Assembly (NCBI GenBank): GCA_023484045.1
Contig: JAMDAA010000035.1
Location: 10,966 to 74,965 of the forward strand
Direction of reading: 5' to 3'
From: Patescibacteria group bacterium
GTDB taxonomy: Bacteria; Patescibacteriota; Microgenomatia; Levybacterales; UBA12049
DNA length: 64,000 nt
A program made the position numbers and the translations under genes. Positions 628 through 32,933 of this stretch are shown one piece after another. Every line of letters begins with the position of its first letter. Position 1 is the stretch's first letter. Below the pieces are notes generated by a model. The model had not been told where the DNA came from, did no database searches, and was given only the letters and a program-made list of their open reading frames with translations.

Positions 628-1281
628 TCATACGCTTTTTTGTGCCGTAATCATCGGCGTTTTTATGTCGTTACTTTCAACCAATGTGTTTTCTTCGGCT
701 TCTTCGTTATAGACAGAATAGTAAAGTTTTACCAATTCTTCTTTTTCGAGTGTTTTTGCTTTGAGTCCGAGTCTTGCGAGTTGCGTATTCAGAGAGCTCG
801 ATTTTGTATCCAGGGCTTGTTTTGCCTGCTCCTTCGAATTTTTGTCTTTAATAACGCTCGCCGCGCCTTTCTCAAGCGGCGAATAAGGAATAACAATATA
901 GAATTTTTTATCCAGGACTTCGTTTACTTTTATCAATTCTTGTACGAAATCGTGATACAAACTTATTTGCAGCGAAAGTTTTTCGTTGGTCGATTTTTTA
1001 ACTTCTTCTTCGAGTAATTTTAAATAAGACGAGATATCGACTTTTTTGTTTCGGATCAACACTTGTATCGGAAAAGAAAGTGAATTCAGAAGCGACGCGT
1101 AAGAATATATTTTTGTATTTTGTTCTTCTCTTGACAAAAGCGAAAAGTTAGTCGCCTGAATTTCGGTGATCAAACACGCGTTTCCGCCTGTCAAAAACAC
1201 GATATTCCCCTCGATATCGACAATTTCAGTAAATTTTTGGGTAGACCCTGCTTTTATTTTGTTTGGTTTATCGATCGCCAT
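628..1281 (-). CDS. Hypothetical protein in the T4SS-like operon, between the PrgI-like and VirB4-like genes
   Basis: 217-aa ORF separated by 3 nt from both the upstream PrgI-like gene and the downstream VirB4-like start. Charged and coiled-coil rich. No family recognised. Confidence 0.4.
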   Translation of the reverse strand: MAIDKPNKIKAGSTQKFTEIVDIEGNIVFLTGGNACLITEIQATNFSLLSREEQNTKIYSYASLLNSLSFPIQVLIRNKKVDISSYLKLLEEEVKKSTNEKLSLQISLYHDFVQELIKVNEVLDKKFYIVIPYSPLEKGAASVIKDKNSKEQAKQALDTKSSSLNTQLARLGLKAKTLEKEELVKLYYSVYNEEAEENTLVESNDIKTPMITAQKSV

Positions 1282-1283
1282 AA

Positions 1284-2534
1284 TTAATTACCTGCCGCGC
1301 TTGAAAACAATGCTTTTCTTAACTCTTCACGTTCGTCGCTCGAAATTACCTCAAGCGGCGAGATTATTTCTCCCGACACGATAAGCTCAATGACGTCAAA
1401 CTTATTTTTCCCTTTTGGGTCTTCAAATGCGACAGTATACGTGCCGTTTAAAAGCGGCGTCGCTGACGCAAATTGGCCCAAGCCGTTTGTTTTAAACGCG
1501 CGAACAGGATTTCCTTCTTTATCCTTTACCTCGATTAAAATACCCGGCAATACGTTTCCTCTGGCGTCTTTAACGATTCCTGTTATTAGATTTGGAACAT
1601 CGGGCGTTATTGGCGCGCCGACAGTTTTGCCCATCGTTTTTGGAATCGTTCTCACGTTTTGAGTTTCGGCTTTGGGTTGTATTGCCCCCGGTGTAAACAC
1701 TTTTTGCTGTTGTGTTTCGATTGTTTTTTTAAGGTTCAATAATTGCTGTTCAAATTGATTTCGTTCTGTCATAACTTCGTTTAACTGCTGTTCTAGTTCC
1801 AATACTTTTTGATGTATGTTTGCGGTCACAGCTGGTTCTTTCTGAATCGCTTCCTCTTTTTTTGCCTCCTCGAGTTCTTTTGTGATCAACGCCGCTTCTT
1901 TTTGAAGCACCTCGTTTAAATTTTGTTGATTTTTAGGTTGGGAAATGATAGGTTTTTCTTCTTTTCTGGCGGAGCCAGATCCCGCTTCGCGGGACTTTTT
2001 TTCCTCATCTGTCAAAATTATGCGTGGCGGTCCGCCAGGTGGCTGAGAAACCGTTGGTTGGGCCATGCCACCACTAAGCATCGACGAAAGAGACTTAAAA
2101 AACATCATTTCCTTTTCGTCGTGTTTCTCTTTCGGTTTTTGTGGAAGATTTGCTAAATACATCTGAAGTTTGTTTTGCGATTGCGCTTGTGTTTGTTTTG
2201 CCGGGCCTTGAATTTTTTGAATTACGATCGGGACTAATAACTGCCCTCCGAGTTTTTGATAAACGTACTGATTGGGAGAAAAAAGCGCTCTTAAAAAATT
2301 GCCAAACATTATATCGAGCGGTCTTCCTTCGATCGGCAAAAAAGCCAAAGAAACACCAAGTAAAGCAGAAAACAAAGAAATGGAATATTTTATAAGCCAA
2401 AAAATGGGTGCGTAAAAAAATAAAAATGCCAAACCGACTCCACCGGCCAAAAACGCAAACTGCTTAACCGTCATGTCGCCGATCAATTTAAATTTAAATC
2501 CGGTAACATCCTGGGGTATTGGATGATTTTCCAT
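1284..2534 (-). CDS. PrgI-family (VirB3-like) membrane protein with a long C-terminal coiled-coil / beta-rich extension
   Basis: The N-terminus IPQDVTGFKFKLIGDMTVKQFAFLAGGVGLAFLFFY...GRPLDIMFGNFLRALFSPNQYVYQK matches the PrgI-family pattern (xPQxIxxEDKIxGPxTxKQFxYLAGG, two TM segments, then YxWxK). Residues 100-416 are an extension with a Q-rich coiled coil and a C-terminal beta-sandwich-like region. Confidence 0.55.
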   Translation of the reverse strand: MENHPIPQDVTGFKFKLIGDMTVKQFAFLAGGVGLAFLFFYAPIFWLIKYSISLFSALLGVSLAFLPIEGRPLDIMFGNFLRALFSPNQYVYQKLGGQLLVPIVIQKIQGPAKQTQAQSQNKLQMYLANLPQKPKEKHDEKEMMFFKSLSSMLSGGMAQPTVSQPPGGPPRIILTDEEKKSREAGSGSARKEEKPIISQPKNQQNLNEVLQKEAALITKELEEAKKEEAIQKEPAVTANIHQKVLELEQQLNEVMTERNQFEQQLLNLKKTIETQQQKVFTPGAIQPKAETQNVRTIPKTMGKTVGAPITPDVPNLITGIVKDARGNVLPGILIEVKDKEGNPVRAFKTNGLGQFASATPLLNGTYTVAFEDPKGKNKFDVIELIVSGEIISPLEVISSDEREELRKALFSSAAGN

Positions 2535-3573: not shown

Positions 3574-3981
3574 TTAGGAGCCGATCAGGGGAGGTATCGT
3601 AAGATTTGTAATATTAATTCCGAACAATTGCGCTACAAACGATATAATAAAGTAAGCCAATATCGCAATAATTAATCCTACAATCGCCGCCACAATCTGA
3701 TTTCTCGCTCCCTCTACTTTCGATTTATCTCCGCCGGAAGTAATCCATCTTATTCCGCCGATGATTAAGAAGAATACGGCGATAATAATCGCGATAATAA
3801 TAACAGCGATTATGACTCTACCGACCATCGGGCCGAAATCTGTCGGCGTAATCAAACATATTTGTCTGAGAATGTCATTTTTCTCTTTTTCTTGGCAAAT
3901 AGCAAGGTCTACGGCAAAAGCAGGATTTGCCAGTAATAGATACGAGATAAGTCCTGTTATCGGGGCGATAATTTTCCTCAT
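3574..3981 (-). CDS. TrbC/VirB2-like pilin-type protein (paralog 2). Start trimmed to MRKIIAPITG with a signal peptide
   Basis: Signal peptide ending ANPAFA, then the core FGPMVGRVIIAVIIIAIIIAVFFLIIGGIRWITSGGDKSKVEGARNQIVAAIVGLIIAILAYFIISFVA. This core is identical to paralog 3 over 68 aa. Confidence 0.5.
   Translation of the reverse strand: MRKIIAPITGLISYLLLANPAFAVDLAICQEKEKNDILRQICLITPTDFGPMVGRVIIAVIIIAIIIAVFFLIIGGIRWITSGGDKSKVEGARNQIVAAIVGLIIAILAYFIISFVAQLFGINITNLTIPPLIGS
3635..3838. repeat. 204-bp perfect direct repeat, copy A (inside pilin paralog 2); identical to 4213-4416
   Basis: Direct base-by-base comparison of the two regions. Identity begins at acaaacgatataataaagtaagcc and ends at ggccgaaa. 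Flanks diverge immediately on both sides. Confidence 0.9.
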
Positions 3982-4043
3982 TAGATTTATGATATGGAGA
4001 TTTTTGGAGTTTGTCAAGAGGAAAATATTTTAAATTTAACTGT

Positions 4044-4571
4044 TTACCGACATTCAAAAATTGGCGGGAGTAGTCCAGGATTAATTTGGGTACAGGTTCC
4101 CGAAGTGCAGGATCCAGATGTATTCCCGCCGCAAACAGCAGACGAAGAGCTACTTCCGCCTATTAAATTTGGAATCGTGAGATTCGTAATCGTTATTCCG
4201 AATAATCCGGCCACAAACGATATAATAAAGTAAGCCAATATCGCAATAATTAATCCTACAATCGCCGCCACAATCTGATTTCTCGCTCCCTCTACTTTCG
4301 ATTTATCTCCGCCGGAAGTAATCCATCTTATTCCGCCGATGATTAAGAAGAATACGGCGATAATAATCGCGATAATAATAACAGCGATTATGACTCTACC
4401 GACCATCGGGCCGAAACTTTGAGGATTAAAACCGCAAAGTATCTTATTAAATCCTGTGTTGCCTCCTGCTCCGGCCTGACTGCAAACGTCAACCGTTACG
4501 TCGGCAAAAGCGGGTTTTATAAAAAAGAGATAAAAAAACAGAGTACTAAAAAATGCAAAAATTTTCCTCAT
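4044..4571 (-). CDS. TrbC/VirB2-like pilin-type protein (paralog 3) with a Cys/Gly/Ser-rich C-terminal tail
   Basis: Same start and signal peptide as paralog 2 (MRKIFAFF...KPAFA) and the identical 68-aa core. It has a divergent N-terminal region and a C-terminal GGSSSSSAVCGGNTSGSCTSGTCTQ tail. Confidence 0.5.
   Translation of the reverse strand: MRKIFAFFSTLFFYLFFIKPAFADVTVDVCSQAGAGGNTGFNKILCGFNPQSFGPMVGRVIIAVIIIAIIIAVFFLIIGGIRWITSGGDKSKVEGARNQIVAAIVGLIIAILAYFIISFVAGLFGITITNLTIPNLIGGSSSSSAVCGGNTSGSCTSGTCTQINPGLLPPIFECR
4213..4416. repeat. 204-bp perfect direct repeat, copy B (inside pilin paralog 3)
   Basis: See copy A. The offset between copies is 578 bp. Confidence 0.9.
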
Positions 4572-4944: not shown

Positions 4945-6369
4945 TTAAGGAATTTTTAAAGACCATCCGGGAATATGTAATATATTAACTCCGATAAGTT
5001 CCAATATAAATATCGAAAATATTATAAATAAAAGACCCACAATGGTAGATGTTAAGGTTTCCTTTGCCCCCTGAACTTTTTCTGCATTTCCCCGAGACGT
5101 CATTAGTTTATAACCGGAATAAATAATTAATAAGAGGGCAATTCCACCAGAGAGACTAAGAGTAATTCCAAAAATGCTTGCTATAAAGTCTTTTGGGTCA
5201 GTGCCAATGTCGATTCCTAAACCGGTGGAAACCTTTTCACATTTATCATTTACTAGTCCACCGGGCGCGCAAACTGGCGCGGGAGGAGGGAACGATTGTT
5301 GGTCAGATGATTTGTCGTAAAGTATACACCCATAACCCTGATAACACCATCCGCTAGCAGAGCAATCGACATATGATGTTGGATCAGTAAATTCAGTTTG
5401 ATTTTTGATGTTTTGACACGTATTTTCGAAGCCATTCCAAATAAATTTATTTGAACAAACAGGACAGCTTGTTAATAAATCTGGATTCTGTGTCGGTTTA
5501 GGGATTGGAGTGTTTCTCGGAATCGGTGTTGGAGTATTTGTGCCTGCTGGAGCGGGATTAACTTTAAAGTTTAATGGGCACCAGTTATTGTATTGTATGG
5601 ATTCGGAATCACTACCAATATAGACCTCATAAGTTCCTAATTGGGATGGTGCTGAAAATTCATGTGCTAAAGTATTATTAGCATCAAGCGTAACTGGTTC
5701 TGGATTTTTTGCGTCCCAACTTCTGCCAAAATATACAGACTTTTTTGTTATTCCGGGCCATGTTACTTTGTACGTTAAACCTGCATTAGGGGTTGTATCT
5801 ATTAAATCTTGCGATTGTCCACATTGTGGGTTAACATTGACCGATGGCTGCGGGGTTGGTGTTGATGATTGATTTTGATCAGACTTAATAATATTAATTA
5901 CATATTCGTCAACTTGATTAAAAATATCACCGCCCAATGTAATAACCTTTTTTTTATTAAGGATAATGTCATATCTTCCCAGAACAAGGTTTTTTAGATC
6001 ATTTTTATCATCAACTACGAACTCGTGTTTTGTCGCTCCAGTATCATGAGTATCAAAAACAAAATAAGGATGTAATCCTTTTTTCCGTGCAAATTGAGCG
6101 CAATCATTATTATATGAATTCGTAAGCGTACTTTCTAAAAATACATATTTATCAAGATTTTGAATTTCTATTACATAACAAGTTCTTGGCTGGAGATTAG
6201 AAATCTTGATTTTAAAAGGGGAACCTTCTTTGAAATTATTTTCAGACGTGGCCACAATTTTTTCTGGATTTTCAGAGTCAGAGTTAGCAAATACATTCTT
6301 GGCAAAAGTTATTAAGTAAGAAAGGATAAAAACTATTATTAATAATAAAAGAAGATTATTTTTTCTCAC
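4945..6369 (-). CDS. Large secreted protein (about 400-aa Cys-rich extracellular region) fused to a C-terminal TrbC/VirB2-like pilin module
   Basis: N-terminal signal peptide. The long extracellular region has about 16 Cys and PTP-rich linkers. The C-terminal 75 aa, GGIALLLIIYSGYKLMTSRGNAEKVQGAKETLTSTIVGLLFIIFSIFILELIG, has the same two-TM pilin-like architecture as the four short paralogs. Confidence 0.5.
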   Translation of the reverse strand: MRKNNLLLLLIIVFILSYLITFAKNVFANSDSENPEKIVATSENNFKEGSPFKIKISNLQPRTCYVIEIQNLDKYVFLESTLTNSYNNDCAQFARKKGLHPYFVFDTHDTGATKHEFVVDDKNDLKNLVLGRYDIILNKKKVITLGGDIFNQVDEYVINIIKSDQNQSSTPTPQPSVNVNPQCGQSQDLIDTTPNAGLTYKVTWPGITKKSVYFGRSWDAKNPEPVTLDANNTLAHEFSAPSQLGTYEVYIGSDSESIQYNNWCPLNFKVNPAPAGTNTPTPIPRNTPIPKPTQNPDLLTSCPVCSNKFIWNGFENTCQNIKNQTEFTDPTSYVDCSASGWCYQGYGCILYDKSSDQQSFPPPAPVCAPGGLVNDKCEKVSTGLGIDIGTDPKDFIASIFGITLSLSGGIALLLIIYSGYKLMTSRGNAEKVQGAKETLTSTIVGLLFIIFSIFILELIGVNILHIPGWSLKIP

Positions 6370-6551
6370 TTCTTCATCGTAGAATAGTTAAAAAAGTTTT
6401 GCAACTAAGGAGAAAATTTGAGACCGCGGCCTTTTATTGTTTGGAGATGGATTGGGTTATTGGGACCAGCTTCGATTTTTCTGCGGAGTCGGTACAGTCA
6501 TCGGTTTTCGGTTGTCAGTTTTCAGAAATTTGTTTGTCGGTTTTCGGTTAA

Positions 6552-6926
6552 TCAGTCAAATTTTTGCCAGGAGGATAAAAGTTTGTTAAGTTTTCTAGAG
6601 AGAATTTTATATTTTTCTATTAGCCATTCGCAATCTTCAGTTCGGATTCTGGTATAAGTTTTTGCCACAATTTTTATTTCTCTAATATGAGTTATAACTT
6701 CATCTGATGACCCAAGTGCCATTGACAAAAACCTGCAGAATTCCCGAGGCGACCTTTTCTTGCCAAAGCCTTCTGCTATTTGAGGAGCAATTTTTTCTCC
6801 AGCTTCGTTTGCTTGGAATTTAAGCCTTCTATGAGTTAGAGGAAGTAAGTTTGTAATTCTATATAATGGTTCAAGGAGATCAAGTGACAAATTATAAACT
6901 TCAAGGTCAGTAACATCTTTAATCAC
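6552..6926 (-). CDS. Four-helix-bundle protein (TIGR02436 / Avd / IVS-protein family), copy 2
   Basis: MIKDVTDLEVYNLSLDLLEPLYRITNLLP...IAPQIAEGFGKKRSPREFCRFLSMALGSSDEV. Flanked by heptamer-repeat tracts at 6470-6551 and 6930-7000 that are roughly inverted with respect to each other. Confidence 0.75.
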   Translation of the reverse strand: MIKDVTDLEVYNLSLDLLEPLYRITNLLPLTHRRLKFQANEAGEKIAPQIAEGFGKKRSPREFCRFLSMALGSSDEVITHIREIKIVAKTYTRIRTEDCEWLIEKYKILSRKLNKLLSSWQKFD

Positions 6927-7000
6927 TCTCTTAGTCTATCAGATAAACAGATAACTGATAAACTTTTGTCCGAGAACAGAAAACCGGGAACTGATAACAT

Positions 7001-8377
7001 TTATGCAGTGAATTTCATTCCTCTCCCCTTAATTGTCTCCAGATGCTTTGGGTTATTTGGGTCTGTTTCTATTTTCTTCCGCAATCTAAAAATTAACTGA
7101 TCAAGCGCCTGGTCTGTTACTCCGGCCGTTGTTTGAGTATCTTTCCAGACCGAATTTATTATCTCTTCTCTCTCTATAATTTTTCCCTGATTTTCGATTA
7201 AATATTTTAAAAGCCGAAATTCAGCAGAAGTTAAATTCTCTGAAAGAACAAGTTCTCCTTTTTTAATCTCTCTTGCGTCTTGGTCGTAATGTATTTGTTC
7301 GTGGGCGGTTTCTTTTAATGTTTTAATATATTCTTCAAAAATCGGAATTGCGATCTGTTGATTTTTTAACATCCCGACTTTTTCAAGATATATTATGTTT
7401 TCTTTTTCGATATTAAATACCGTGCTTGAAATATTAGATATTAAATATTCTTGTTCGGCCGGAATAAACGAAGACCAGATTTCAAAAAGCCCTTTTTGAA
7501 CCGGTTTTTGTTCGAGCAAAAATTCGATAAGTTTCTTAGCGTTTGGCTGTAAGTCCTTATCTGCTAATATACTTTCCGCACAAAGTCTCGTCAGTTTTCC
7601 GTGTCCTCCGGTTAAATCGATAATTTTGTCCAAAAGTTTTATGTCGATATCTTTTCCCGATATTTTCTGAAGATATGAAATTCTAAAATCTGTTCCCGGT
7701 TTATCATAAAGCGAAAGATAAATAATATTTCCGGCGATAAACTCGTAAAAGTCTGCAAAAAGCGCCGGTTCGATTAAGTCTTCAAGCGGCCGGGGAAGCG
7801 AAAAAATAACAGAAAATCTGTACTTGGCGATGTTTCTAAGGGTTTTAAGATTTATAAAAAACTGATCGGAAACTTTTGAAATATAGTCTTCGAATCTGTC
7901 GAAAAGAAAAACAACGGCTAGTTCCTTTTCGATCGACAAAAAATTAACAGCTTCTTTTAGCCCCTGAAAAAGAACGATTTCATCATTTTGAATCATATGG
8001 GATTTGAATATTTTATGGAGTGCTTCGTGTTCTGCATTCAGCTTCCGGTCGCGGAGCGAATCGGCCAAAGACAAAAACATAAATTTTAGAACGTCAAAAA
8101 GAGATCGGTTTTTGACTTCGGAAAAATTCATGTAGACAAAGTGAAGCCATTTTTGATCTTCGCCTGAATGTTTAATGCGGACATTCCGGTTATAGGCAAG
8201 AAGTCTTAATAGATTTGATCTTCCTGTTCCGGGAAGGCTTACGATCTGACACGATTTCCCTCCTTTAATAAAACCCAGAATTTTTTCGATTTCTGCAAAA
8301 CGAGAGTCGTCGGGGTATAAAGATTCAAAATGAAGACCTTCCATTGCTTCATTGTTAAATTGCTTGATTGTTTTCAT
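7001..8377 (-). CDS. P-loop NTPase fused to a C-terminal OmpR/PhoB-type winged-helix DNA-binding domain (putative regulator)
   Basis: N-terminal SLPGTGRSNLLRLL P-loop-like motif followed by an ATPase-like region of about 300 aa. The C-terminal FRLLKYLIENQGKIIEREEIINSVW...ALDQLIFRLRKKIE...IETIKGRGMKF is a typical trans_reg_C winged helix. Confidence 0.6.
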   Translation of the reverse strand: MKTIKQFNNEAMEGLHFESLYPDDSRFAEIEKILGFIKGGKSCQIVSLPGTGRSNLLRLLAYNRNVRIKHSGEDQKWLHFVYMNFSEVKNRSLFDVLKFMFLSLADSLRDRKLNAEHEALHKIFKSHMIQNDEIVLFQGLKEAVNFLSIEKELAVVFLFDRFEDYISKVSDQFFINLKTLRNIAKYRFSVIFSLPRPLEDLIEPALFADFYEFIAGNIIYLSLYDKPGTDFRISYLQKISGKDIDIKLLDKIIDLTGGHGKLTRLCAESILADKDLQPNAKKLIEFLLEQKPVQKGLFEIWSSFIPAEQEYLISNISSTVFNIEKENIIYLEKVGMLKNQQIAIPIFEEYIKTLKETAHEQIHYDQDAREIKKGELVLSENLTSAEFRLLKYLIENQGKIIEREEIINSVWKDTQTTAGVTDQALDQLIFRLRKKIETDPNNPKHLETIKGRGMKFTA

Positions 8378-8434
8378 TGTTTGATATTTTAGTTAAAAGT
8401 TCAAAGTTAAAAATTAAAAATTACAACTCAAAAT

Positions 8435-8806
8435 TCAAAGTTTATTTCTTCCTTTTAACGTAGAAATACTTGAACCAAGGATTTTTACAAGTTCATCTGT
8501 TTCTTTTAAGAGTGCTTCAATTTCTGCTATTAATTTGGGATCAAGATCTTTTGATAAAGCCAGCCAAAATTTAGTTTCGTTCCCGCTTTTTAAAGCGTGA
8601 TTTAAGAAATTAACAAAATCTCTTTTTGAACTAGCCGCTTGTGCTTCGATAATATTAGCCCCGATGGATGTCGCTGCTCTTAAAAGCTGATCGCTTATAA
8701 CCCATGCAGATCTTTTATTGGGGAACTTATCAACCAGATTAATTATTCTTCTGGCCAAAATAAACGCCCGGCTTATTAACTGTTTTTTAAAATCTTTGTT
8801 ATTCAT
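8435..8806 (-). CDS. Four-helix-bundle protein (TIGR02436 / Avd / IVS-protein family), copy 3
   Basis: ...RAATSIGANIIEAQAASSKRDFVNFLNHALKSGNETKFWLAL... Flanked by inverted heptamer-repeat tracts at about 8390-8440 and 8807-8860, both containing ttaaaagttcaaagt. Confidence 0.75.
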   Translation of the reverse strand: MNNKDFKKQLISRAFILARRIINLVDKFPNKRSAWVISDQLLRAATSIGANIIEAQAASSKRDFVNFLNHALKSGNETKFWLALSKDLDPKLIAEIEALLKETDELVKILGSSISTLKGRNKL

Positions 8807-8938: not shown

Positions 8939-11575
8939 ATGAAAGAGGTTTTTAGGCCAACGCCCGAATTGACAAACAAGGCTCCGGTGCAATATTCTAG
9001 AACTGGAGATATTTTTATGGGGGAAAACAGTGGAGAAAAAAATCCTTCTGGACAGAACAATGCAGCTGAACAAGTCAAGACCCCAACCTCTCAGCAGCTT
9101 ATTGCTGGACTAGAATCTATGCACCCGGAAAATTGGGGGTTAAGAGAATCATTTATTCGAGGAAGAAAACAACTAGGTCCGGAATCGATTGTGGATCGAT
9201 TGGATCCGGTTGCTGCCTCAATTCTATCGATCGATCCCACAGGATTTCATGAAGATCCGATTGTAAATGCGATCAATTATTTACAGCTAGAAGCCAGAAA
9301 GGGGAGAGTCGATTTATCTACTTTAAGGGAAATCCGCGAACCGATTTTAAAAGATTTTCTCAGTCCTGATCGAAAAATAAGTTCTGCGGAGGCGACTGAG
9401 TTTTTAAGTAGGACAAGAGACATATTAACCTTGGCGCAAGGAATAAAAGAGCTGGAAGAAGAGGAAGAAAAAAAGGCCGAGGAGGGGAGAAAAAAAGCAG
9501 AAAGAGTAACTGAAGAAGAGAAACTTAAGGATTCAGAAGTGATCGAAAGACTATTTCAGGAAAACATGTTGCGGATTGAACAGCGTGAAATGACTACTCA
9601 AAGCCAGGCGTGGTTTGAAGAAACAACCATGATTAATAAGTTAATAAACTTGGCAGAAGATCTTGGAGATAAAGACCCGGGAGGTAAATTACGTCAACGG
9701 TTAGTCGCACAAAAAAACGTGCGCTTTGCCCTTCACGACATCAATTTCTATGCGCGGGCAGGAATCAAGGAAAATTTTCCCCACATGAGTGAGGCAGCAA
9801 ACCAAATCAATACAGAACATTTTTATTTGGTACACGCCTTGCCTGGCGTAGCGCCAGTTATGCGTATTTTTGAAGAAGAGTATTCTAAGGCAATCCAACA
9901 AACAGGAAGAATTACAGATATCGAGGTCCAAAAAGTCCGTGCCGATGTAGAAAAAAGGTTTAATACGGTAGCTACGATGTACGGTTTAACAGAGCCTCAG
10001 GCGAAAACAGCTTTTAGACTCGGAGAAAACCTATTTAATACTAAAACTCGTTTAGCAGTTTATATATCGCGTGGCGAGATTCCGCAAAATTTGGAGTATC
10101 TACGCACAGATCCTTGGAGTGAATTTGTGCGTTTATATTCTGCTTATGAATTTGAAGTTGGCAAATGGAGATCAATACCAGAAAGCGCAAAAGACTTCGC
10201 CCGATTTTTAGGTAAAACAGCCTTCGACAAAATTCTCAGTGTCCCCGATCACGATTCTTCAATATGGAGAACTTTTGGAATAATCGAAGGATTAAATCAA
10301 AAAGGATATTACAAGTGGGGTCTTTTTATGAGGTTAAAATTTGCTTATAAAGACAAAAAAGCCTTATACGGCGAGGATGGAAAATCGGGCGAAGATCGAA
10401 AAAAAATGGAGAAAAGAGCGGATGAATTAAGGGATGAAATTGTCCAGGATTTTTTGAAAGGAGGAGCATCAAGAGAAGAAGCGGACAAAATGGGAGACAG
10501 AAGAGTCGCGGGATACTGGAAAGACATGCAAAAAGAAATAGATACTAAAACGCATATGGGCAAAACTGGAGAAACCGGGGAGCCTCAACTTAAACAAGTT
10601 TTTAGAGAAGATATTCTTAAGGAAATTAATCATTATATGCCCGAAGAATTAGCGCGGGCATATTGGGGAGATGAGCAATTAGCGAATGTAATTAAAGAAT
10701 GCGGAGGGGCGGAAGTGTTCGGTGAATTATGCAACGAATTAACCCGGATTCGAGAAGAGGAATTAAGAGATGAAAAAGAAAGAGTAAAAGGTCTTAGCGC
10801 TGAGGATCGTGAAAAAAGACAAGACAATTATCAAAATTTTGACAGTAAGGTTACTCATCTTAAGCCAGAGCTTCGTAATCTTTATGCAAGGCTTCATGAT
10901 TTTTTTGAAGAAATAGATGGAAAAGATGGAAAAGGAAGAACAAGAATACAGATTCTCACAGATGAAGATGCAATTATTGGCGGAAGAAAAAATCCTTTGT
11001 ATGACAAAATTTGGTCTGAAAAAGACATGCCATTTGAAGAATTAGAAGATACTATAACACCTGGCTTTGTCGGCCATAAAACATTGGGAAGAAATTATAA
11101 TGATCATGCTGCAGCATTTGGTACCTTAGAAATACTTGAAGAGCTCGCAAAAAATCCAACAAATTTGGAAAATTTACAAAAACTCCACGGAACATTTTCA
11201 AAGTGGCTCGGTTTGGAAACTGAAGAAAAATTAATCGCCCAAATCGCAGAGTCCGTATTAAAATATCATGCCCAAGATGAAGCTTTTAGGCATTTAATGC
11301 CTGGAATTTCAAATCTTCTTGGCTGGGTCATAAGAGGTGGTTCTTCACCTGCGCGAAGAAGATTGGGGAAAAAAGGAGCACAATGGGATTCAGGAACATT
11401 AAATGATCAAATAAATGAAATGCAGGCAAAAGGGTTATTGAGCAAGGAAAAGGCAGATGAACTACGGCAAAAATTGCACATTGTATTTGGTTTTAGGATT
11501 CTACCCTTAGTTCAATTATTTATACTTACTATGGTTTTTGAGATTATCTACAGCCAGGGTCCCCAGAAGAAATAA
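8939..11575 (+). CDS. Large (878 aa) highly charged hypothetical protein with a single C-terminal hydrophobic segment
   Basis: Long intact ORF, rich in E/K/R with coiled-coil-like stretches. The C-terminus is ...FGFRILPLVQLFILTMVFEIIYSQ. No recognised catalytic motif. Confidence 0.5.
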   Translation: MKEVFRPTPELTNKAPVQYSRTGDIFMGENSGEKNPSGQNNAAEQVKTPTSQQLIAGLESMHPENWGLRESFIRGRKQLGPESIVDRLDPVAASILSIDPTGFHEDPIVNAINYLQLEARKGRVDLSTLREIREPILKDFLSPDRKISSAEATEFLSRTRDILTLAQGIKELEEEEEKKAEEGRKKAERVTEEEKLKDSEVIERLFQENMLRIEQREMTTQSQAWFEETTMINKLINLAEDLGDKDPGGKLRQRLVAQKNVRFALHDINFYARAGIKENFPHMSEAANQINTEHFYLVHALPGVAPVMRIFEEEYSKAIQQTGRITDIEVQKVRADVEKRFNTVATMYGLTEPQAKTAFRLGENLFNTKTRLAVYISRGEIPQNLEYLRTDPWSEFVRLYSAYEFEVGKWRSIPESAKDFARFLGKTAFDKILSVPDHDSSIWRTFGIIEGLNQKGYYKWGLFMRLKFAYKDKKALYGEDGKSGEDRKKMEKRADELRDEIVQDFLKGGASREEADKMGDRRVAGYWKDMQKEIDTKTHMGKTGETGEPQLKQVFREDILKEINHYMPEELARAYWGDEQLANVIKECGGAEVFGELCNELTRIREEELRDEKERVKGLSAEDREKRQDNYQNFDSKVTHLKPELRNLYARLHDFFEEIDGKDGKGRTRIQILTDEDAIIGGRKNPLYDKIWSEKDMPFEELEDTITPGFVGHKTLGRNYNDHAAAFGTLEILEELAKNPTNLENLQKLHGTFSKWLGLETEEKLIAQIAESVLKYHAQDEAFRHLMPGISNLLGWVIRGGSSPARRRLGKKGAQWDSGTLNDQINEMQAKGLLSKEKADELRQKLHIVFGFRILPLVQLFILTMVFEIIYSQGPQKK

Positions 11576-11605: not shown

Positions 11606-13291
11606 CTATTGAAACCGAAATATTTGTCGGGCAGCACCCCACATGCCTGCTTTTTGAGTTGGGTTACCCGGTAAAGGAGTTCGAGACGCAGCAACTGCTT
11701 TCCCAGAACCACTAATTGCTCCTGTTCCAACCCCGAGCGCAGTAACAATCGGAGAAAGATCAACTTTAGGCGGCTTTAAGACTTGTTGCATATAAGTTAC
11801 TACACGTGGTGTAAGAAGTATAAATCCCATTCCGATTAAAGAACCGATTGGACCTACTTCTCCTCCAGTTGGATTTCCGATAAGCGGAGGTACAAACAAT
11901 GAACTATTTTTGTTAAAAATATTCATCATCGTGTTTCCTAATAATAGCATTGCAATTGTGGTAGGAAATGCTAATAGGTAAGAAAGCATGTAACGTAGCC
12001 AGCTTACAAACCCTCTTCCTCCGACAGCCGGGATAATCCCGGCTACGATCCAAAAAGGCGAGAGGGTAATACCGATTAGTATGGCGACATAAGCCATAAC
12101 AAGTTTAAACCAAAGTCTAAAAAGGGCCCAAAGGATCGCGATAAAAACAATAAGGAATACTAGCAAATAAGGGAGACCAAGTCTTAATGTAGATTGAGCG
12201 AGTCCATAAGAAACTAAACCCGCAGAGATACCGACCCCGGCTGAAATTAAAGGGGTTCCTATCATGCTCGATACTTTTGCCCCAGTTCCAATTCCGATAG
12301 ATGTACTAGCTATGTCGATTAACCAATTAAAAACATTATTTTTTAAACCACTTAATCCAGCAAATCCCTTCAGAAAATTAATAAATTCTGAGGGGCCCAA
12401 AAATGATATGACATTTTGATTTATGTCAAAAATCTTCCCCACAACCGCCGTAGCTGAACTGGCAATATTATTTGCCATTCCGGAAATATTTCCAATATTA
12501 GTTACACCTGGTCCATTACTAGTTCCACCAACAGCTTCTAAAACATTTCTCCCTTGTAAAATTGTTGGATTTAAATTGCTTACATCTATAGCTAAATTAG
12601 CGTTCGAGAATACCCCAAAAGTTAAATACATAAGTATCCACATAAGATCAATCAAAAACCCTGCAATAGCGAAGGAGAATGTAACCATGATGACACCGAT
12701 AATGATTCGCGGGATCTGGTTTTGTATAGTCATTACGGTTCGGGGATCAATTTTAACCCTCAACATTATCATTAATCCTATTATGATAAATATAAGTATA
12801 AAGACGAAATAAACCATATTTCGAAATATAACCCATAATTGCATTAACGGTTTTATGCTATCGAGACCAGTCGATGCATATACGGGTTTTGCGAGGCCAA
12901 AATTACGCGCCAAATAATTAAAATAATCACTTGTATGTATTGGTGGGGTATAAAGCGTTGCGATCATGTTCCCCATAACTCCGATCGCGCCTCCGCCGTT
13001 TTCGACAAAGCCGATTTTCCCAGTTTTTTGATCCACGCCTAAACACTTTTGATTTGGATTTACCGGATCGACACCTGTTAACTGACAAGTCATGGCAGAC
13101 ATAACTTCGATCATCGCATTTTGTGTCCAGGTATGAAGATTTTGGGGAATATCAGGATTAGTGTTAGGAGCAGCATATTGATTTTGTTGGTGTGTTTGTG
13201 ATTGGGCATATGACGGCGTGATAGAAAATAGAAGATAGAAAATAGAAGATAGAAAGAAAAGAGCGACGATATGGACAGTTTGTTTAAACAT
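11606..13291 (-). CDS. Polytopic membrane protein with signal peptide, possibly VirB6/TrbL-like
   Basis: 561 aa. Signal peptide, then a soluble domain of about 110 aa, then at least seven hydrophobic helices and a Gly-rich C-terminus. The architecture resembles VirB6/TrbL. The assignment is by context and topology only. Confidence 0.35.
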   Translation of the reverse strand: MFKQTVHIVALFFLSSIFYLLFSITPSYAQSQTHQQNQYAAPNTNPDIPQNLHTWTQNAMIEVMSAMTCQLTGVDPVNPNQKCLGVDQKTGKIGFVENGGGAIGVMGNMIATLYTPPIHTSDYFNYLARNFGLAKPVYASTGLDSIKPLMQLWVIFRNMVYFVFILIFIIIGLMIMLRVKIDPRTVMTIQNQIPRIIIGVIMVTFSFAIAGFLIDLMWILMYLTFGVFSNANLAIDVSNLNPTILQGRNVLEAVGGTSNGPGVTNIGNISGMANNIASSATAVVGKIFDINQNVISFLGPSEFINFLKGFAGLSGLKNNVFNWLIDIASTSIGIGTGAKVSSMIGTPLISAGVGISAGLVSYGLAQSTLRLGLPYLLVFLIVFIAILWALFRLWFKLVMAYVAILIGITLSPFWIVAGIIPAVGGRGFVSWLRYMLSYLLAFPTTIAMLLLGNTMMNIFNKNSSLFVPPLIGNPTGGEVGPIGSLIGMGFILLTPRVVTYMQQVLKPPKVDLSPIVTALGVGTGAISGSGKAVAASRTPLPGNPTQKAGMWGAARQIFRFQ

Positions 13292-16965: not shown

Positions 16966-17937
16966 ATGAAACATCGTCTGCCCGTGTTTCTGTTTGTATT
17001 TTTAATTCCTGTTGCTGCTTTTTTCTTATTCTTTCGATTTGAAACGAAAAACGCCTCAGCGGCAAATGCCACTCATTTGGTAATTTCGGAAATACAAGTC
17101 GCCGGAGCTTCATCTTCTCAGGATTTTATCGAGCTTTATAATCCGACGTCGTCAGAGATTAGTTTAGATGGATATAGATTGGTCAAGAGGACAAGTGCGA
17201 GTGCCACAGACTCAAGTATCATGGTTTTTGCGTCTGATGAAATTATTCCCGCTCACGGTTTTTATCTGTGGTGTAATTCGAGTTTAACTGCAAGTTTTGG
17301 ATGTGACAGAAATACGGGCGCTAGCATTGCTAATAACAACAGCATCGGTTTACGTAATGGTCCCGCAAATACAGGGACAGTGGTCGATGCGGTTACTTTT
17401 GGATCTGTAACAAACGCGCTCGGAGAGGGGATATCTCTTACTGCTCCTGTTGCGAGTACGAGTGTTGAAAGAAAAGCGAGTCCTACTTCAGATTCTGCGA
17501 GTATGGCAGTCGGAGGGTCTGATGAATTTATGGGAAACGGGGAAGATACAGATAATAACGCTTCGGATTTTGTAATAAGAACTATGCCTCAGCCCCAAAA
17601 TAGCAAGTCGGCCGTTGAGCCAGCTTTAACATCAACAGAGAGTCCGACCGGAACAATTACGCCAACTGTTACTCCGATAATTACAGAAACACCCACGGAA
17701 ACTCCGACAGAAACTCCAGCTGCAACACCAACGATCGGGATAACAATAACGCCGACTCCTACATTAATTCCCACAATTACACCTTCCCCCAAACCGACGC
17801 CGATTTTGCATAACCCGTTTGTTATTAAACTTCCAAACTCGATATTAGTCTGCGGCTTCCGTTATATAAAAGTTCCGATACTGTGGGGCATGATGCGTAT
17901 GCCAAGATTTACATGCTTCTTTGTGCGCCTCAAATAG
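16966..17937 (+). CDS. Secreted lamin-tail-domain (LTD) protein with a TP-rich linker
   Basis: Signal peptide, then LVISEIQVAGASSSQDFIELYNPTSSEISLDGYRL (LTD signature), then a TPTETPTETPAATPT low-complexity linker. Confidence 0.6.
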   Translation: MKHRLPVFLFVFLIPVAAFFLFFRFETKNASAANATHLVISEIQVAGASSSQDFIELYNPTSSEISLDGYRLVKRTSASATDSSIMVFASDEIIPAHGFYLWCNSSLTASFGCDRNTGASIANNNSIGLRNGPANTGTVVDAVTFGSVTNALGEGISLTAPVASTSVERKASPTSDSASMAVGGSDEFMGNGEDTDNNASDFVIRTMPQPQNSKSAVEPALTSTESPTGTITPTVTPIITETPTETPTETPAATPTIGITITPTPTLIPTITPSPKPTPILHNPFVIKLPNSILVCGFRYIKVPILWGMMRMPRFTCFFVRLK

Positions 17938-30079: not shown

Positions 30080-30739
30080 ATGCAAATAATTCCTGGGATT
30101 TTAGAAAAAACTTGGGAAGAGGTTGAAAAAAAGATCGAAACCGCTAAAACTTTTTCAAAAATTATTCATATCGATATAATCGACGGAAAATTTGCGCCGA
30201 ACACGACTTTTTTAGATCCAGCGCCGTTTAAAAAATATTCAAACGATTTTTTTTTCGAAGTTCAACTAATGGTCGATGAACCGATAAATTATTTAAAACC
30301 TTTTGCCAACTCGGGGTTTAAAAGATTTTTGGGGCAGATCGAAAAAATGTCGAGTCAGGAAGAGTTTATAGCGCAAGGACAACTTTTGGGTGAAGTGGGT
30401 TTGGCGATCGATCTTCCAACCCCGATAGATTCGATAAAAGTTCCGTTCGACGGTCTTGACTGTTTGCTTTTTATGTCGGTAAAAGCGGGATTTTCGGGAC
30501 AAAAATTTTCGGAAAATATTTTGGAAAAAATAAGATCAGCAAGGCAAAAAACCTCGATCCCGATCGAAATCGATGGCGGAGTAAACGAAGAAAATATCAA
30601 ACGCCTTTTAGAATCCGGAGTTAATCGTTTTATCGCGACAAGCGCAATTTTTGGTTCGGATAATCCTTTAAATCAATATCGAAATTTACAAAACTTCCTT
30701 AAAGAGTCGGACTCACAGACGGAGAAGGAGACGGAGTGA
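30080..30739 (+). CDS. rpe: Ribulose-phosphate 3-epimerase
   Basis: HIDIIDGKFAPNTTF, LMSVKAGFSGQKF and EIDGGVNEENIKRL...FIATSAIF align with the Rpe motifs HFDVMDxHxVPNxT, LMSVNPGFGGQ and EVDGGV...AGSAIF. Confidence 0.8.
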   Translation: MQIIPGILEKTWEEVEKKIETAKTFSKIIHIDIIDGKFAPNTTFLDPAPFKKYSNDFFFEVQLMVDEPINYLKPFANSGFKRFLGQIEKMSSQEEFIAQGQLLGEVGLAIDLPTPIDSIKVPFDGLDCLLFMSVKAGFSGQKFSENILEKIRSARQKTSIPIEIDGGVNEENIKRLLESGVNRFIATSAIFGSDNPLNQYRNLQNFLKESDSQTEKETE

Positions 30740-32933
30740 AGATGCAGTTTACAGAATTTTCGGTTCCTTTTATAAAATATTCAATTCTCCCAAGACACGG
30801 TTTTTGAATAACATCAAAAGGCATTTTATATTTTTCATCGGGCTTATTTTTTAGGACCTCGGTCATGATTTTGTTCCAAATCGGTGCGGCACCCGTTATT
30901 CCCGATGCTAAACTTTGACTCATTGGGCTATTGTCGTTATTTCCAACCCAGACAGCAACAACATAAGAAGGTGTATAGCCGATTGTCCAATTATCTCTTT
31001 TGTTATCGGATGTTCCGGTTTTAACCGACACAGTCTTGCCAGAAATATTAAGAGGGGAATTTGTGCCGAATTCTAAGGCTCGAGCTTGATTATCTGAAAG
31101 TATGCTCGAAATAATAAAAGTAATGCCTTCATCTAAAACAGTTTTTCCATGGATTTCTTTTTTTTCTTCTAAGATGTTACCTTTATAATCGGTTATTTTT
31201 AAAATCGGGTTTAAATCGACTCTTCTGCCCTGATTCGCGATGGTTCCGTAAACGGTCGCCATATCGAGCATCGTGACATCCGCACCGCCGAGCGTTATCG
31301 ATAAACCGTATTTTTTCGAATCATCCCACGATTTTATTCCCATTTTCTTTCCCAAGTTTACGATCGCTTGGACCCCGACTTGATTTACAATTTTTACAGC
31401 AGGAATATTAAAAGAATTTGCAAATGCGATCCGAAGCGGAATATTCCCATGGAATTTACCGTCATAATTAACAGGTGAATAAACAGTTGCAGAACCGGTT
31501 GCAACAAACGTGATCGGAGAATCATTTAGAATTGTTGCAGGAGTTAGTCCGCGGGAAAGTGCTGCGGAGTACGTGACGACTTTTATCGAAGATCCGGGTT
31601 GGCGAAGAGAAAGTGTCACGTTTACATTTCCATCATTTTTTGTGTCAAAATAGTCTTTACTTCCGACCATCGCTAAAATATCTCCATTTTTCGGATCAGT
31701 TACGACACTCGCGCCGTTTGTAAGATTTAAGTAAGTATTATTTTGCACCTCATCTGCGACAATTTTTTCGGCATCTTCCTGAAGTTTTAAATCGATGCTT
31801 GTTATAATATTTAATCCGCCTTTTTCGACCATTCCGAGGCCATATTTTTTTACCAAAAAATCTTTCACATACATCACAAAATGCGGAGCGAATATTGGCG
31901 TTTGGGGAGTTTGAAAAGCTAGCTCTTCATTTTTTGCATTGTCGTGATCTTCCTTTGAAATATAATCCAAGGAAAGCATTTTGTCTAAAACTTCGATTTG
32001 TCTCCTTTTCCAAAGATTAGGTGTTGTGCCAAACGGAGAATAGATCGTCGGTGCTTTTGGGATTCCGGCCAAAAATGCAGATTCAGCAAGGTCTAAATCT
32101 TTGACGTTTTTTCCGAAATATATTTCGGAAGCCGCCTCTGCGCCCCAGGCAGTTCCCCCGTAAGGAACCTGATTAAAGTACATCTCGAGAATTTGGTTTT
32201 TGGTATAAATTCTTTCGGACCAGAAGGCAAGGATTATTTCTTTTATTTTTCTTTCGATCGTAGTTTCGGGACTTAAAAGCGCAGACTTAATAAGTTGTTG
32301 GGTGATCGTTGATCCGCCCTGCAACCCGTCTCCCGACGCATTTTTAATCGCTGATCTTATGATCGCGTTTACGTCAAATCCCGGGTGATCGTAAAAATCT
32401 TTGTCTTCGATCGCGATCGTCGCCTGCTGTAATTTTATCGGAATATCAGAAAGCGGGACCATGGTCCTGTTTTGATTTGCGTAAATTTGATATAAGAGCG
32501 TATGGTTTCGATCATAAATTTTTGTTGTTTGCGAGATGTCCCTTAAAGACAGCATTCTCGGATTCGGAAGGTTATCGATAAAAATAAATATAAGAATCGG
32601 GATAAAGATAAAAACACAGGAAAAAATAATGCCCCAAATAAAATATTTAAATTTTGTTAAAAACGGGAGAGGGAATATAACTATCGGCTTTGTTTTCTTA
32701 CTTTTTTTTATCCTATTTTTAATTTTTTCGTAGAATTGTTTTTTGGTTTTATTATTAGATCGAGAAAACCTCAACCTTCTTAAATCAAAGATTTCAAAAG
32801 TAATCTTAAAAAGATTAACTATAGGTTTAAATAAATTTTTGACAACAGATTTAATTGATTTAAACAATAAGATTACAAAATCACCAATTTTAATCAGAAT
32901 CTGCGCGATAAAAAAAGCAATATTCCCGATCAT
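30699..32933 (-). CDS. Class A penicillin-binding protein (transglycosylase + transpeptidase), paralog 1
   Basis: GT51 motifs IEDKDFYDHPGFD and GGSTITQQLIK. Transpeptidase region LSLRQPGSSIK (SxxK). N-terminal TM. Confidence 0.8.
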   Translation of the reverse strand: MIGNIAFFIAQILIKIGDFVILLFKSIKSVVKNLFKPIVNLFKITFEIFDLRRLRFSRSNNKTKKQFYEKIKNRIKKSKKTKPIVIFPLPFLTKFKYFIWGIIFSCVFIFIPILIFIFIDNLPNPRMLSLRDISQTTKIYDRNHTLLYQIYANQNRTMVPLSDIPIKLQQATIAIEDKDFYDHPGFDVNAIIRSAIKNASGDGLQGGSTITQQLIKSALLSPETTIERKIKEIILAFWSERIYTKNQILEMYFNQVPYGGTAWGAEAASEIYFGKNVKDLDLAESAFLAGIPKAPTIYSPFGTTPNLWKRRQIEVLDKMLSLDYISKEDHDNAKNEELAFQTPQTPIFAPHFVMYVKDFLVKKYGLGMVEKGGLNIITSIDLKLQEDAEKIVADEVQNNTYLNLTNGASVVTDPKNGDILAMVGSKDYFDTKNDGNVNVTLSLRQPGSSIKVVTYSAALSRGLTPATILNDSPITFVATGSATVYSPVNYDGKFHGNIPLRIAFANSFNIPAVKIVNQVGVQAIVNLGKKMGIKSWDDSKKYGLSITLGGADVTMLDMATVYGTIANQGRRVDLNPILKITDYKGNILEEKKEIHGKTVLDEGITFIISSILSDNQARALEFGTNSPLNISGKTVSVKTGTSDNKRDNWTIGYTPSYVVAVWVGNNDNSPMSQSLASGITGAAPIWNKIMTEVLKNKPDEKYKMPFDVIQKPCLGRIEYFIKGTENSVNCIFTPSPSPSVSPTL
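31585..31679. repeat. 95-bp block identical to 34080-34174 (between the two PBP paralogs)
   Basis: Direct comparison: atcgaagatccgggttggcgaagagaaagtgtcacgtttacatttccatcattttttgtgtcaaaatagtctttacttccgaccatcgctaaaat is identical in both genes. Two further shared blocks of about 32 bp lie near 32296/34790 and 32395/34880. Confidence 0.9.

Follow-up and report, generated by a model that had tools for sequence, protein, structure and literature searches.

The window analyzed here, a 64-kb stretch (64,000 nt) of contig JAMDAA010000035.1 from a Patescibacteria group bacterium (assembly GCA_023484045.1), encodes a 474-amino-acid (aa) protein that is very likely a surface-displayed pilin fusion of a type IV secretion system (T4SS). 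It combines a signal peptide, a Cys-rich extracellular region (ectodomain) and a C-terminal pilin module, and by the curated threshold it is a member of the T4SS_pilin family PF18895. Judged from the sequences of related loci, such long (L-type) pilins form a distinct orthogroup that always leads an array of pilin genes in the fixed order L-S1-S2-S3. The evidence leaves evenly poised the full reading, namely that the long pilin is a specialized, low-copy tip or initiator subunit with an exchangeable target-binding head, for which the tip location and the binding are predicted from sequence comparison.

The long protein ends in a complete T4SS pilin module

The 474-aa product has an identical copy in NCBI nr, named 'MAG: pilin [Patescibacteria group bacterium]', and the same protein is encoded on contigs of three independent SRA assemblies from separate sequencing runs; the reading frame is therefore real and not an assembly artefact. 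An ATG located 8 nt 5' of the GTG start is out of frame and terminates after three codons. The N-terminus, MRKNN-LLLLLIIVFILSYLITF-AKNVFA/NS, with its 17-residue hydrophobic core, reads as a classical Sec signal peptide. Only three hydrophobic segments occur in the protein, at residues 1–29, 394–420 and 436–468, and the latter two are separated by a basic loop, KLMTSRGNAEKVQGAK, containing K421, R426, K431 and K436.

The PF18895 profile matched residues 394–457 with 29.6 bits (gathering cut-off 26.6; profile positions 7–69 of 71), and it also matched all four open reading frames (ORFs) directly downstream (108, 175, 147 and 115 aa) and 85 of 85 aligned relatives of the long pilin. Residues 378–474 matched the four paralogs in the window by BLASTP (E 5e-11 to 8e-8) and by phmmer (E 3e-15 to 4e-9). 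An earlier note on this DNA had described a secreted, Cys-rich region with Pro/Thr linkers fused to a C-terminal pilin-type module, and had allowed that the C-terminal segment might be only generically hydrophobic and fail to align with its paralogs under profile-profile comparison. In hhalign the module aligned with the short pilins at 99.3% probability (E 4e-20), and with the four window paralogs only at 98.1% (E 9e-14). Pfam, BLASTP/phmmer and profile-profile comparison all agree that the fusion to a pilin module is real, and every Cys motif listed in the note is present. The two-helix pilin architecture described there stood as well, but its extent and its loop were revised: the module covers ~108 aa (residues 367–474) instead of 75 and begins with PPP-C-x9-C, and in place of a literal GG-x-K the loop reads SRGNAEKVQGAK, a variant form of SGG(D/N)K..(A/G)A(K/R) in the short pilins.

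The module is composed of a Cys loop (C367-x9-C377), a T-x-G/TDP-x-x-F neck, a helix (392–424), the basic loop, a second helix (429–463) and an IPG(F/W) tail. Three of the four short paralogs contain an equivalent Cys-x(12-16)-Cys loop just before helix 1 and right after the signal-peptide/start region, which implies that in the long protein an ectodomain is inserted between the signal peptide and a complete mature-type pilin. In the AlphaFold2 (AF2) model, residues 370–465 reach a predicted local distance difference test (pLDDT) score of ~90 and form a helical hairpin with a small beta element in front. Foldseek placed VirB2 of the Agrobacterium T-pilus at ranks 1–3 of 350,542 PDB chains compared with the module, but with E values of 1.5–2. 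The TrbC/VirB2 profile PF04956 did not match the 474-aa protein; the 115-aa paralog reached 16.8 bits (cut-off 27.9), and two of the 85 relatives matched at E 3e-4. No VirB5/TrbJ family was found among the Pfam/NCBIfam matches of the long pilin at E ≤ 0.01, and Pfam detected no PrgB-like adhesin domain; the C-terminus reads as the pilin hairpin ending in IPGWSLKIP and has no LPXTG motif.

The earlier note had left the secretion or pilus system unnamed. The locus carries PrgI and TrsD genes, joined by VirB4 in relatives, and the protein is therefore a T4SS pilin rather than a type IV pilus pilin. From gene content, the system is a chromosomal MPF-FATA-like (Gram-positive-type) T4SS of a Microgenomatia/Levybacteria-like Patescibacterium, with VirB2-like pilins. 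MPF-FATA-like systems with unusual arrays of VirB2-like pilins have been described in Patescibacteria (Quinonero-Coronel et al. 2025; PMC12102498), and in Southlakia epibionticum the T4SS and its PF18895 pilins are essential for epibiotic growth (PMC10633639; reviewed in PMC12857230).

L-type pilins lead an array of four orthogroups

A database search yielded 144 proteins at E ≤ 1e-3. Among the best 120 of these, the 119 non-self proteins are 267–802 aa long; they share a region from ~360–395 to ~466–474 at 36–76% identity, and an N-terminal region is common to almost none of them. A scan of GTDB, using one genome per species, revealed 178 relatives, and 79 loci were kept, mostly titled Levybacteria/Levyibacteriota, Microgenomates, Daviesbacteria or 'Patescibacteria group'. 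A search for the same fusion in related genomes had been proposed earlier as a check; the architecture recurs in more than 200 related proteins, with 83 ORFs in the 79 GTDB species loci. The conserved columns are PPP-C-x9-C-x2-V-x-T-(A/G)-(I/L)-G-x-I-x-T-D-P-x-G-F, both helices and the I-P-G-F tail.

Scores of all pilins in these loci against a hidden Markov model of the module were bimodal and did not overlap (140–220 bits for L-type, below 100 bits for short pilins). A short pilin upstream was found for none of the 83 distinct L-type ORFs, and three was the commonest number of short pilins downstream. While 75 of the 79 loci have one L-type gene, four have two in tandem (L068, at 6317–7294 and 7425–8750, L054, L056 and L021). 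In 28 of 62 loci, the L-type reading frame runs directly up to or into the start of the following pilin; in the window, 1 nt separates the two. In the 41 loci with three short pilins, 162 of the 165 pilins were most similar to the pilin in the corresponding array position of another genome; the array therefore represents four ancient orthogroups in the fixed order L-S1-S2-S3. The median pairwise identity of the L-type module (57%) exceeds that of S1–S3 of the same loci (39–47%), making it the most conserved pilin. In an independent metagenome sample chosen by TrsD, an L-type pilin was present in 12 of the 19 loci with at least 7 kb of upstream sequence.

Some L-type members of 121–154 aa (L134, L132, L043 and L063) have almost no ectodomain. 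In L132 (5127–5510) and L134 (5148–5513), which encode proteins of 121–127 aa, the signal peptide is followed almost directly by the module and there is no Cys loop; these genes still lead three short pilins.

Ectodomains are hypervariable and rich in cysteines

The head of the ectodomain (residues 29–270) is made up of two beta-rich parts, ~29–166 (with C64/C90) and 181–270 (with C183/C264), separated by a short Pro/Thr linker. Pro/Thr-rich linkers lie at ~167–180, 271–298 and 359–366. The long pilin contains 12 Cys (residues 64, 90, 183, 264, 302, 305, 318, 336, 342, 348, 367 and 377), which amounts to 2.5% of the whole protein and 3.4% of the ectodomain compared with 0.77% in 46 other window ORFs, or 3–4 times the window background. 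The number of Cys is even in 74 of the 83 L-type members (p 8e-14) and in 101 of the best 120 of the 144 database matches, as would be expected if the Cys were paired in extracellular disulfides. A mini-domain with six Cys is common to P0003, P0123, L102, L105 and L112. It was considered as a hallmark of the family and rejected; only ~5–7% of the members carry one, and it is therefore an optional module.

A HMMER search with residues 29–360 against 1.84e9 representative proteins gave three non-self matches, of which one is credible: P0123, another long pilin, with similarity limited to the six-Cys mini-domain. The other two were rejected as spurious matches to repeat proteins. The ectodomain had no Pfam match even at E ≤ 5. 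Its pLDDT in the full-length AF2 model is 30–70, and Foldseek comparison with the PDB gave only non-significant matches (E > 0.2) resembling immunoglobulin (Ig) or FN3 domains; no fold was therefore assigned. Pfam head domains were recognized in a few of the 85 relatives, including fn3 in four and CarboxypepD_reg in three, and all of these are Ig-like beta-sandwiches.

Across the GTDB set, 97.3% of module pairs and 2.8% of ectodomain pairs were alignable, and the ectodomains fell into 47 unconnected groups among 79. The two syntenic loci L001 and L002 are 62–63% identical to the window in the module, 60% in TrsD, 46% in PrgI, 39–52% in the regulator and 42–43% in the VirB6-like protein, and the ectodomain found no match in either. 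A metagenome scan with TrsD for strain-level relatives revealed none closer than 62%. One third of the pairs with 90–100% identical modules have no detectable head similarity, and other pairs share only 25–35% in the head; head divergence is thus not simply a matter of time. In tandem L-type pairs from three loci, the modules are 85–97% identical and the heads 16–25% (global identity), which points to either recombinational exchange of heads or homogenization of modules. The heads vary in length from practically nothing to over 650 aa, and a minority of L-type members have an extension C-terminal to the second helix instead.

Genes for Avd-like four-helix bundles next to the pilin suggested diversification by a diversity-generating retroelement. 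This was rejected because there is no template/variable repeat: no repeat in the 64-kb window involves the long pilin gene, no reverse transcriptase is nearby, and the Avd-like genes are members of the 23S_rRNA_IVP family without a repeat partner.

Proposed role of the long pilin and alternative explanations

The Sec pathway would export the N-terminal region, with the signal peptide predicted to be cut after VFA, and the two C-terminal helices would insert into the membrane as a hairpin whose basic loop faces the cytoplasm. The ~340-aa ectodomain would stay outside on its Pro/Thr-rich tethers, probably held by six disulfides, and the T4SS may recruit the membrane-held protein as a specialized subunit and display its head outward. 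In solved conjugative pili, the two termini of each pilin are exposed on the outer surface (for the F pilus, PMC5018250), and the loop between the helices borders the lumen. Were the module to be extracted from the membrane and built into a filament in the manner of other VirB2-type pilins, its ectodomain would lie on the pilus surface. The long pilin may be present in few copies, initiating or capping a heteromeric L-S1-S2-S3 filament, and may take over the function of the VirB5 tip protein, which is missing; its exchangeable head could bind a structure on the host-cell surface and set target specificity.

A role as tip or initiator with binding activity is favored because the L-type pilins are a separate, single class next to three conserved short ones, their module is under the strongest constraint, the head behaves like the receptor-binding parts of other pili and phage fibers, and the tip/adhesin role is otherwise vacant. 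The build of a tip or initiator adhesin, with a variable head on a conserved module in a distinct and usually single-copy class beside other pilins, is found here. VirB5 has been proposed to nucleate the growing pilus on VirB6 and to end up at its tip (PMC12857230); PrgB-type adhesins were absent from 3,035 Patescibacteria genomes, and VirB5 was found in one Gram-negative-type system only (PMC12102498). The earlier suggestion of a tip or minor pilin that determines host binding is consistent with the single leading gene, its own orthogroup, the conserved module, the hypervariable heads and the even Cys counts; 'adhesin-like' is something we still infer, because the ectodomain has no recognizable fold or family at a pLDDT of 30–70. 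The four position-specific orthogroups argue for a heteromeric structure and against interchangeable antigenic variants. The more specific proposal of a four-class heteromeric Microgenomatia pilus, in which the L-type pilin would be the tip-located initiator and host-recognition subunit, a VirB2-fold replacement for VirB5 whose cassette-like, disulfide-bonded head would set the host, is tentative.

Several points weigh against the tip reading. No pilus of PF18895 pilins has been seen in any Patescibacterium, so that polymerization is an assumption. The structural link to solved VirB2 lacks statistical significance at the Foldseek E values given above, and the PDB contains no sequence match to the long pilin. 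The existence of near-headless L-type members implies a head-independent role of the module, the first gene position and most conserved module would equally fit a major subunit, and the ectodomain has no detectable family or fold, so that a binding function is only predicted.

Alternatively, the protein may be an anchored surface protein, whose hairpin is a membrane anchor or docks at the T4SS channel (for example, at a VirB6-like platform) and is never extruded, the ectodomain acting at the cell surface. We consider this unlikely, although the literature calls a T4SS pilus in Patescibacteria a possibility and none has been visualized (PMC12857230), the essentiality of all six Southlakia pilins is equally compatible with a filament and with a fixed heteromeric complex that forms a stalk or lies in the membrane, and very high module conservation is expected for contact with conserved machinery. 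However, a single transmembrane helix would suffice for anchoring, and the module shares homology with the co-encoded short pilins throughout the two helices and their loop, retains VirB2-type pilin features and is preceded by long Pro/Thr tethers that suggest reach.

The first position in the operon and the most conserved module could also indicate that the L-type pilin is the main building block of a 'bottle-brush' pilus, each shaft subunit of which carries a tethered head. The N-terminus of VirB2-type pilins points outwards, and by a geometric estimate tethers of 25–30 residues could let the heads splay outside an 87-Å shaft. Such a decorated major pilin is nevertheless improbable: three more ancient position-specific pilin orthogroups are kept beside the L-type, ectodomains of 0 to more than 650 aa that are freely swapped are hard to fit to a tightly packed shaft, and the characterized VirB2-type major pilins are all small.

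The exact start of the mature-pilin-like module at the conserved PPP-C-x9-C boundary, together with the same Cys loop right after the signal peptide of the short paralogs, would suit a precursor that is cut at the Pro-rich/Cys-loop junction to release the head as a secreted factor and leave an ordinary short pilin. F-type and P-type pilins are known for unusual processing. We regard a precursor as highly improbable, since no protease or cleavage motif was identified, Pro/Thr linkers are typically tethers rather than cleavage sites, and the C-terminal extensions of a minority of members fit display better than a propeptide. Finally, a false fusion through frameshift, misassembly or wrong ORF call, to which the GTG start with its nearby out-of-frame ATG and the breaking of contigs of the locus at a nearby repeat might point, has practically no probability and is excluded by the recurrence of the architecture in the 83 ORFs of the 79 GTDB species loci and in 120 database proteins (the best 120 of 144), with the identical product in three independent read sets and NCBI.

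Organization of the T4SS locus and neighboring genes

The features of the long pilin and of the T4SS genes in the window are listed in Table 1. Three related genomes have the order polytopic membrane protein, large divergent ORF on the opposite strand, Trans_reg_C regulator, long pilin, three or four short pilins, PrgI, TraC-like protein and VirB4, followed in one of them by dnaN and dnaA. The window presents this order in reverse and stops just short of VirB4, which comes next after TrsD in the relatives and would fall past the left edge.

Table 1 Coordinates of the long pilin, its parts and the T4SS-associated genes of the window
Feature	Position	Strand	Remarks
Long (L-type) T4SS pilin gene	4945..6369	−	474 aa; GTG start; stop at 4945–4947
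Signal peptide, residues 1–28 (MRKNN / hydrophobic core / VFA/NS)	6286..6369	−	Sequence reading; hydrophobic segment 1–29; AF2 helix 3–21
Lineage-specific ectodomain head, residues 29–270	5560..6285	−	No homolog in 1.84e9 proteins; no Pfam match at E ≤ 5
Pro/Thr-rich linker, residues 271–298	5476..5559	−	Sequence reading; pLDDT below 50
Six-Cys mini-domain (CPVC..C..C..C..GYGC), residues 299–350	5320..5475	−	In a minority of L-type pilins
Pro-rich linker with terminal conserved PPP motif, residues 351–366	5272..5319	−	
Conserved L-type pilin module, residues 367–474	4948..5271	−	PF18895 above threshold; 50–76% identity to more than 119 proteins; pLDDT ~90; hhalign E 4e-20 with short pilins
Short pilin S1, 108 aa	4617..4943	−	Start 1 nt beyond the long pilin stop
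Short pilin S2a, 175 aa, Cys-rich C-terminal tail	4044..4571	−	
Short pilin S2b, 147 aa as listed	3574..4017	−	Likely start at internal MRKII
Short pilin S3, 115 aa	3181..3528	−	Nearest to the PF18895 consensus
PrgI/VirB3-like protein with C-terminal CarboxypepD_reg Ig-like domain	1284..2534	−	
TrsD/TraC-like protein	628..1281	−	Resembles the VirB4 N-terminal domain
458-aa protein with C-terminal OmpR-type winged helix (Trans_reg_C)	7001..8377	−	Immediately precedes the L-type pilin in all inspected loci
878-aa ORF	8939–11575	+	No Pfam match; between the regulator and the VirB6-like gene
561-aa polytopic membrane protein	11606..13291	−	Conserved syntenic position; no family match; 42–43% identical to syntenic ORFs
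Three 23S_rRNA_IVP four-helix-bundle (Avd-like) genes	2609–2974, 6552–6926, 8435–8806	− (all)	Interspersed among the T4SS genes
VirD4/TraG-type coupling protein homolog (TrwB_AAD_bind, T4SS-DNA_transf, TraG-D_C)	49187–51565	+	43 kb from the pilin array

As a variation on the L-S1-S2-S3 order, S2 is duplicated in the window (the 175- and 147-aa proteins). The two copies share a 246-nt core with 96% DNA identity (3593–3838 and 4171–4416) and differ in the exposed N-terminal segment and the C-terminal tail, which in the 175-aa copy adds four Cys, a pattern that resembles recent duplication or gene conversion in which the exposed ends have diverged. It is at this repeat that independently assembled contigs of the T4SS locus break. 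In the PrgI/VirB3-like protein, the CarboxypepD_reg domain of ~100 aa stands behind a long low-complexity/coiled region, and the fusion is kept in three relatives.

The 458-aa winged-helix protein, whose N-terminal region contains a P-loop-like motif (LPGTGRSN), is presumed to serve as the pilin operon's own regulator. The 182-nt spacer that precedes the long pilin gene contains two exact copies of a 13-nt direct repeat, AACCGAAAACCGA (6501–6513 and 6537–6549, reverse strand), at a distance of 36 nt. These are the only exact copies in the window, and the adjacent regulator might bind there. A scan for promoters and terminators around the operon found sites no more often than expected by chance. 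The 561-aa polytopic protein is a candidate divergent VirB6, a component that a published survey found to be scarce in Microgenomatia. The position and divergent orientation of the 878-aa ORF are kept in relatives (894–1065 aa), and its sequence is nearly unalignable (24% over 158 aa), making it a second fast-evolving protein of the T4SS locus. In the relative L002, one 23S_rRNA_IVP gene directly follows the long pilin.

The VirD4/TraG-type coupling gene stands apart from the other T4SS genes. The remaining window is ordinary chromosome, with class A penicillin-binding proteins, ribonucleotide reductase, FtsH and a Mur ligase with a MurD-like N-terminal domain; one ORF is read as SmpB. The class A penicillin-binding proteins, with transglycosylase and transpeptidase domains, are two tandem paralogs (30699–32933 and 33020–35173, reverse strand) with DNA segments of 72–91% identity. 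A secreted 323-aa protein with a lamin tail domain (16966–17937, forward strand) has a long Pro/Thr-rich linker behind the domain, in the same style as the linkers of the long pilin.

Novelty and significance

The name 'pilin' given to the 474-aa protein by NCBI and the existence of pilin arrays were already known. In the searchable literature we found no description of the long L-type class, its hypervariable head or the fixed order of four classes, and the 2025 survey, which reports no adhesins, takes the arrays for variable copies (PMC12102498). Patescibacteria account for a large share of bacterial diversity, and the cultivated ones live attached to host cells. A T4SS with a VirB2-like pilin array is essential for the epibiotic lifestyle in one genetically tested species (PMC10633639). 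A conserved pilin whose extracellular head is rapidly exchanged offers a concrete candidate for the host-recognition element still missing, and the long pilin is a defined protein that can be expressed, imaged and used in binding and host-range experiments. If the proposed role is true, the VirB2 family, which is small and uniform, would be extended to a modular 'anchor plus head' design previously found only in unrelated pilus systems, the L-type would represent the first two-domain adhesin in the type IV secretion pilin superfamily, and its head would serve as a sequence-readable marker of host range in uncultivated Patescibacteria.

Comparison with known pilus and secretion systems

The closest described relatives are the PF18895 arrays (Southlakia epibionticum SEML1_0014-0019; Quinonero-Coronel et al. 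2025), which belong to the same family, lie in a locus with PrgI, TrsD and VirB4, near dnaA in relatives, and are likewise tandem arrays of divergent pilins. However, the Southlakia members are small (up to ~185 aa), whereas the long pilin adds a ~340-aa hypervariable ectodomain and falls into an orthogroup of its own, which is more conserved and always occupies the first position of the array. The literature reads such arrays as variable copies, while here they resolve into four ancient position-specific orthogroups. The 'Pam pilus' of a 2026 preprint (10.64898/2026.03.03.709456) is a different pilus, built by donor-strand exchange, and the long pilin is not covered there.

VirB2/TraA/TrbC pilins (PF04956; F pilus, T pilus) resemble the long pilin in having a signal peptide, a hydrophobic hairpin of two helices, a basic loop and both termini expected outside, but they measure ~60–120 aa as opposed to 474 aa and have no significant sequence or fold match to it, and the host here is monoderm. 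The canonical pilins are small mature subunits that polymerize together with phospholipid to give a tubular pilus. Proteins MMCAP2_0566 and Mbov_0396 of Mycoplasma integrative and conjugative elements (NCBIfam NF045848 and NF045889) are monoderm conjugation proteins of ~300 aa with a pilin-like hairpin. The short pilins of the window match these families weakly and below threshold (model positions ~53–121) and the long pilin does not; moreover, the hairpin of these proteins is N-terminal and their extension C-terminal. The Trw system of Bartonella is also a T4SS repurposed for host attachment, in which the variable pilus components TrwL (VirB2) and TrwJ (VirB5) are thought to set host specificity. 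Variation in Trw arises by amplification of genes for small pilins, in contrast to the swapping of heads on one conserved pilin here.

The likeness to VirB5/TrwJ concerns only the role proposed here, that of a specialized subunit which would nucleate the pilus on VirB6, take the tip location and contact the target; there is no homology, VirB5 being a soluble helical protein and not a pilin-fold fusion. The adhesins FimH and PapG consist of an N-terminal binding head and a C-terminal pilin domain by which they are inserted in the fiber, with one copy per pilus that is incorporated first. The long pilin follows the same two-domain logic, but fold and assembly are unrelated (Ig-like donor-strand exchange in the former, a membrane-extracted helical hairpin in the latter). 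The minor pilins GspK and CofB/TcpB of type II secretion and type IV pili combine a pilin module with a large extra domain and are low-copy subunits that prime or cap a heteromeric filament. They differ in belonging to the type IV pilin superfamily, with an N-terminal helix and a prepilin peptidase, and in having the extra domain C-terminal or inserted. With homology to none of the three, the long pilin functionally most resembles, by this comparison, VirB5, FimH/PapG-type adhesins and domain-bearing minor pilins.

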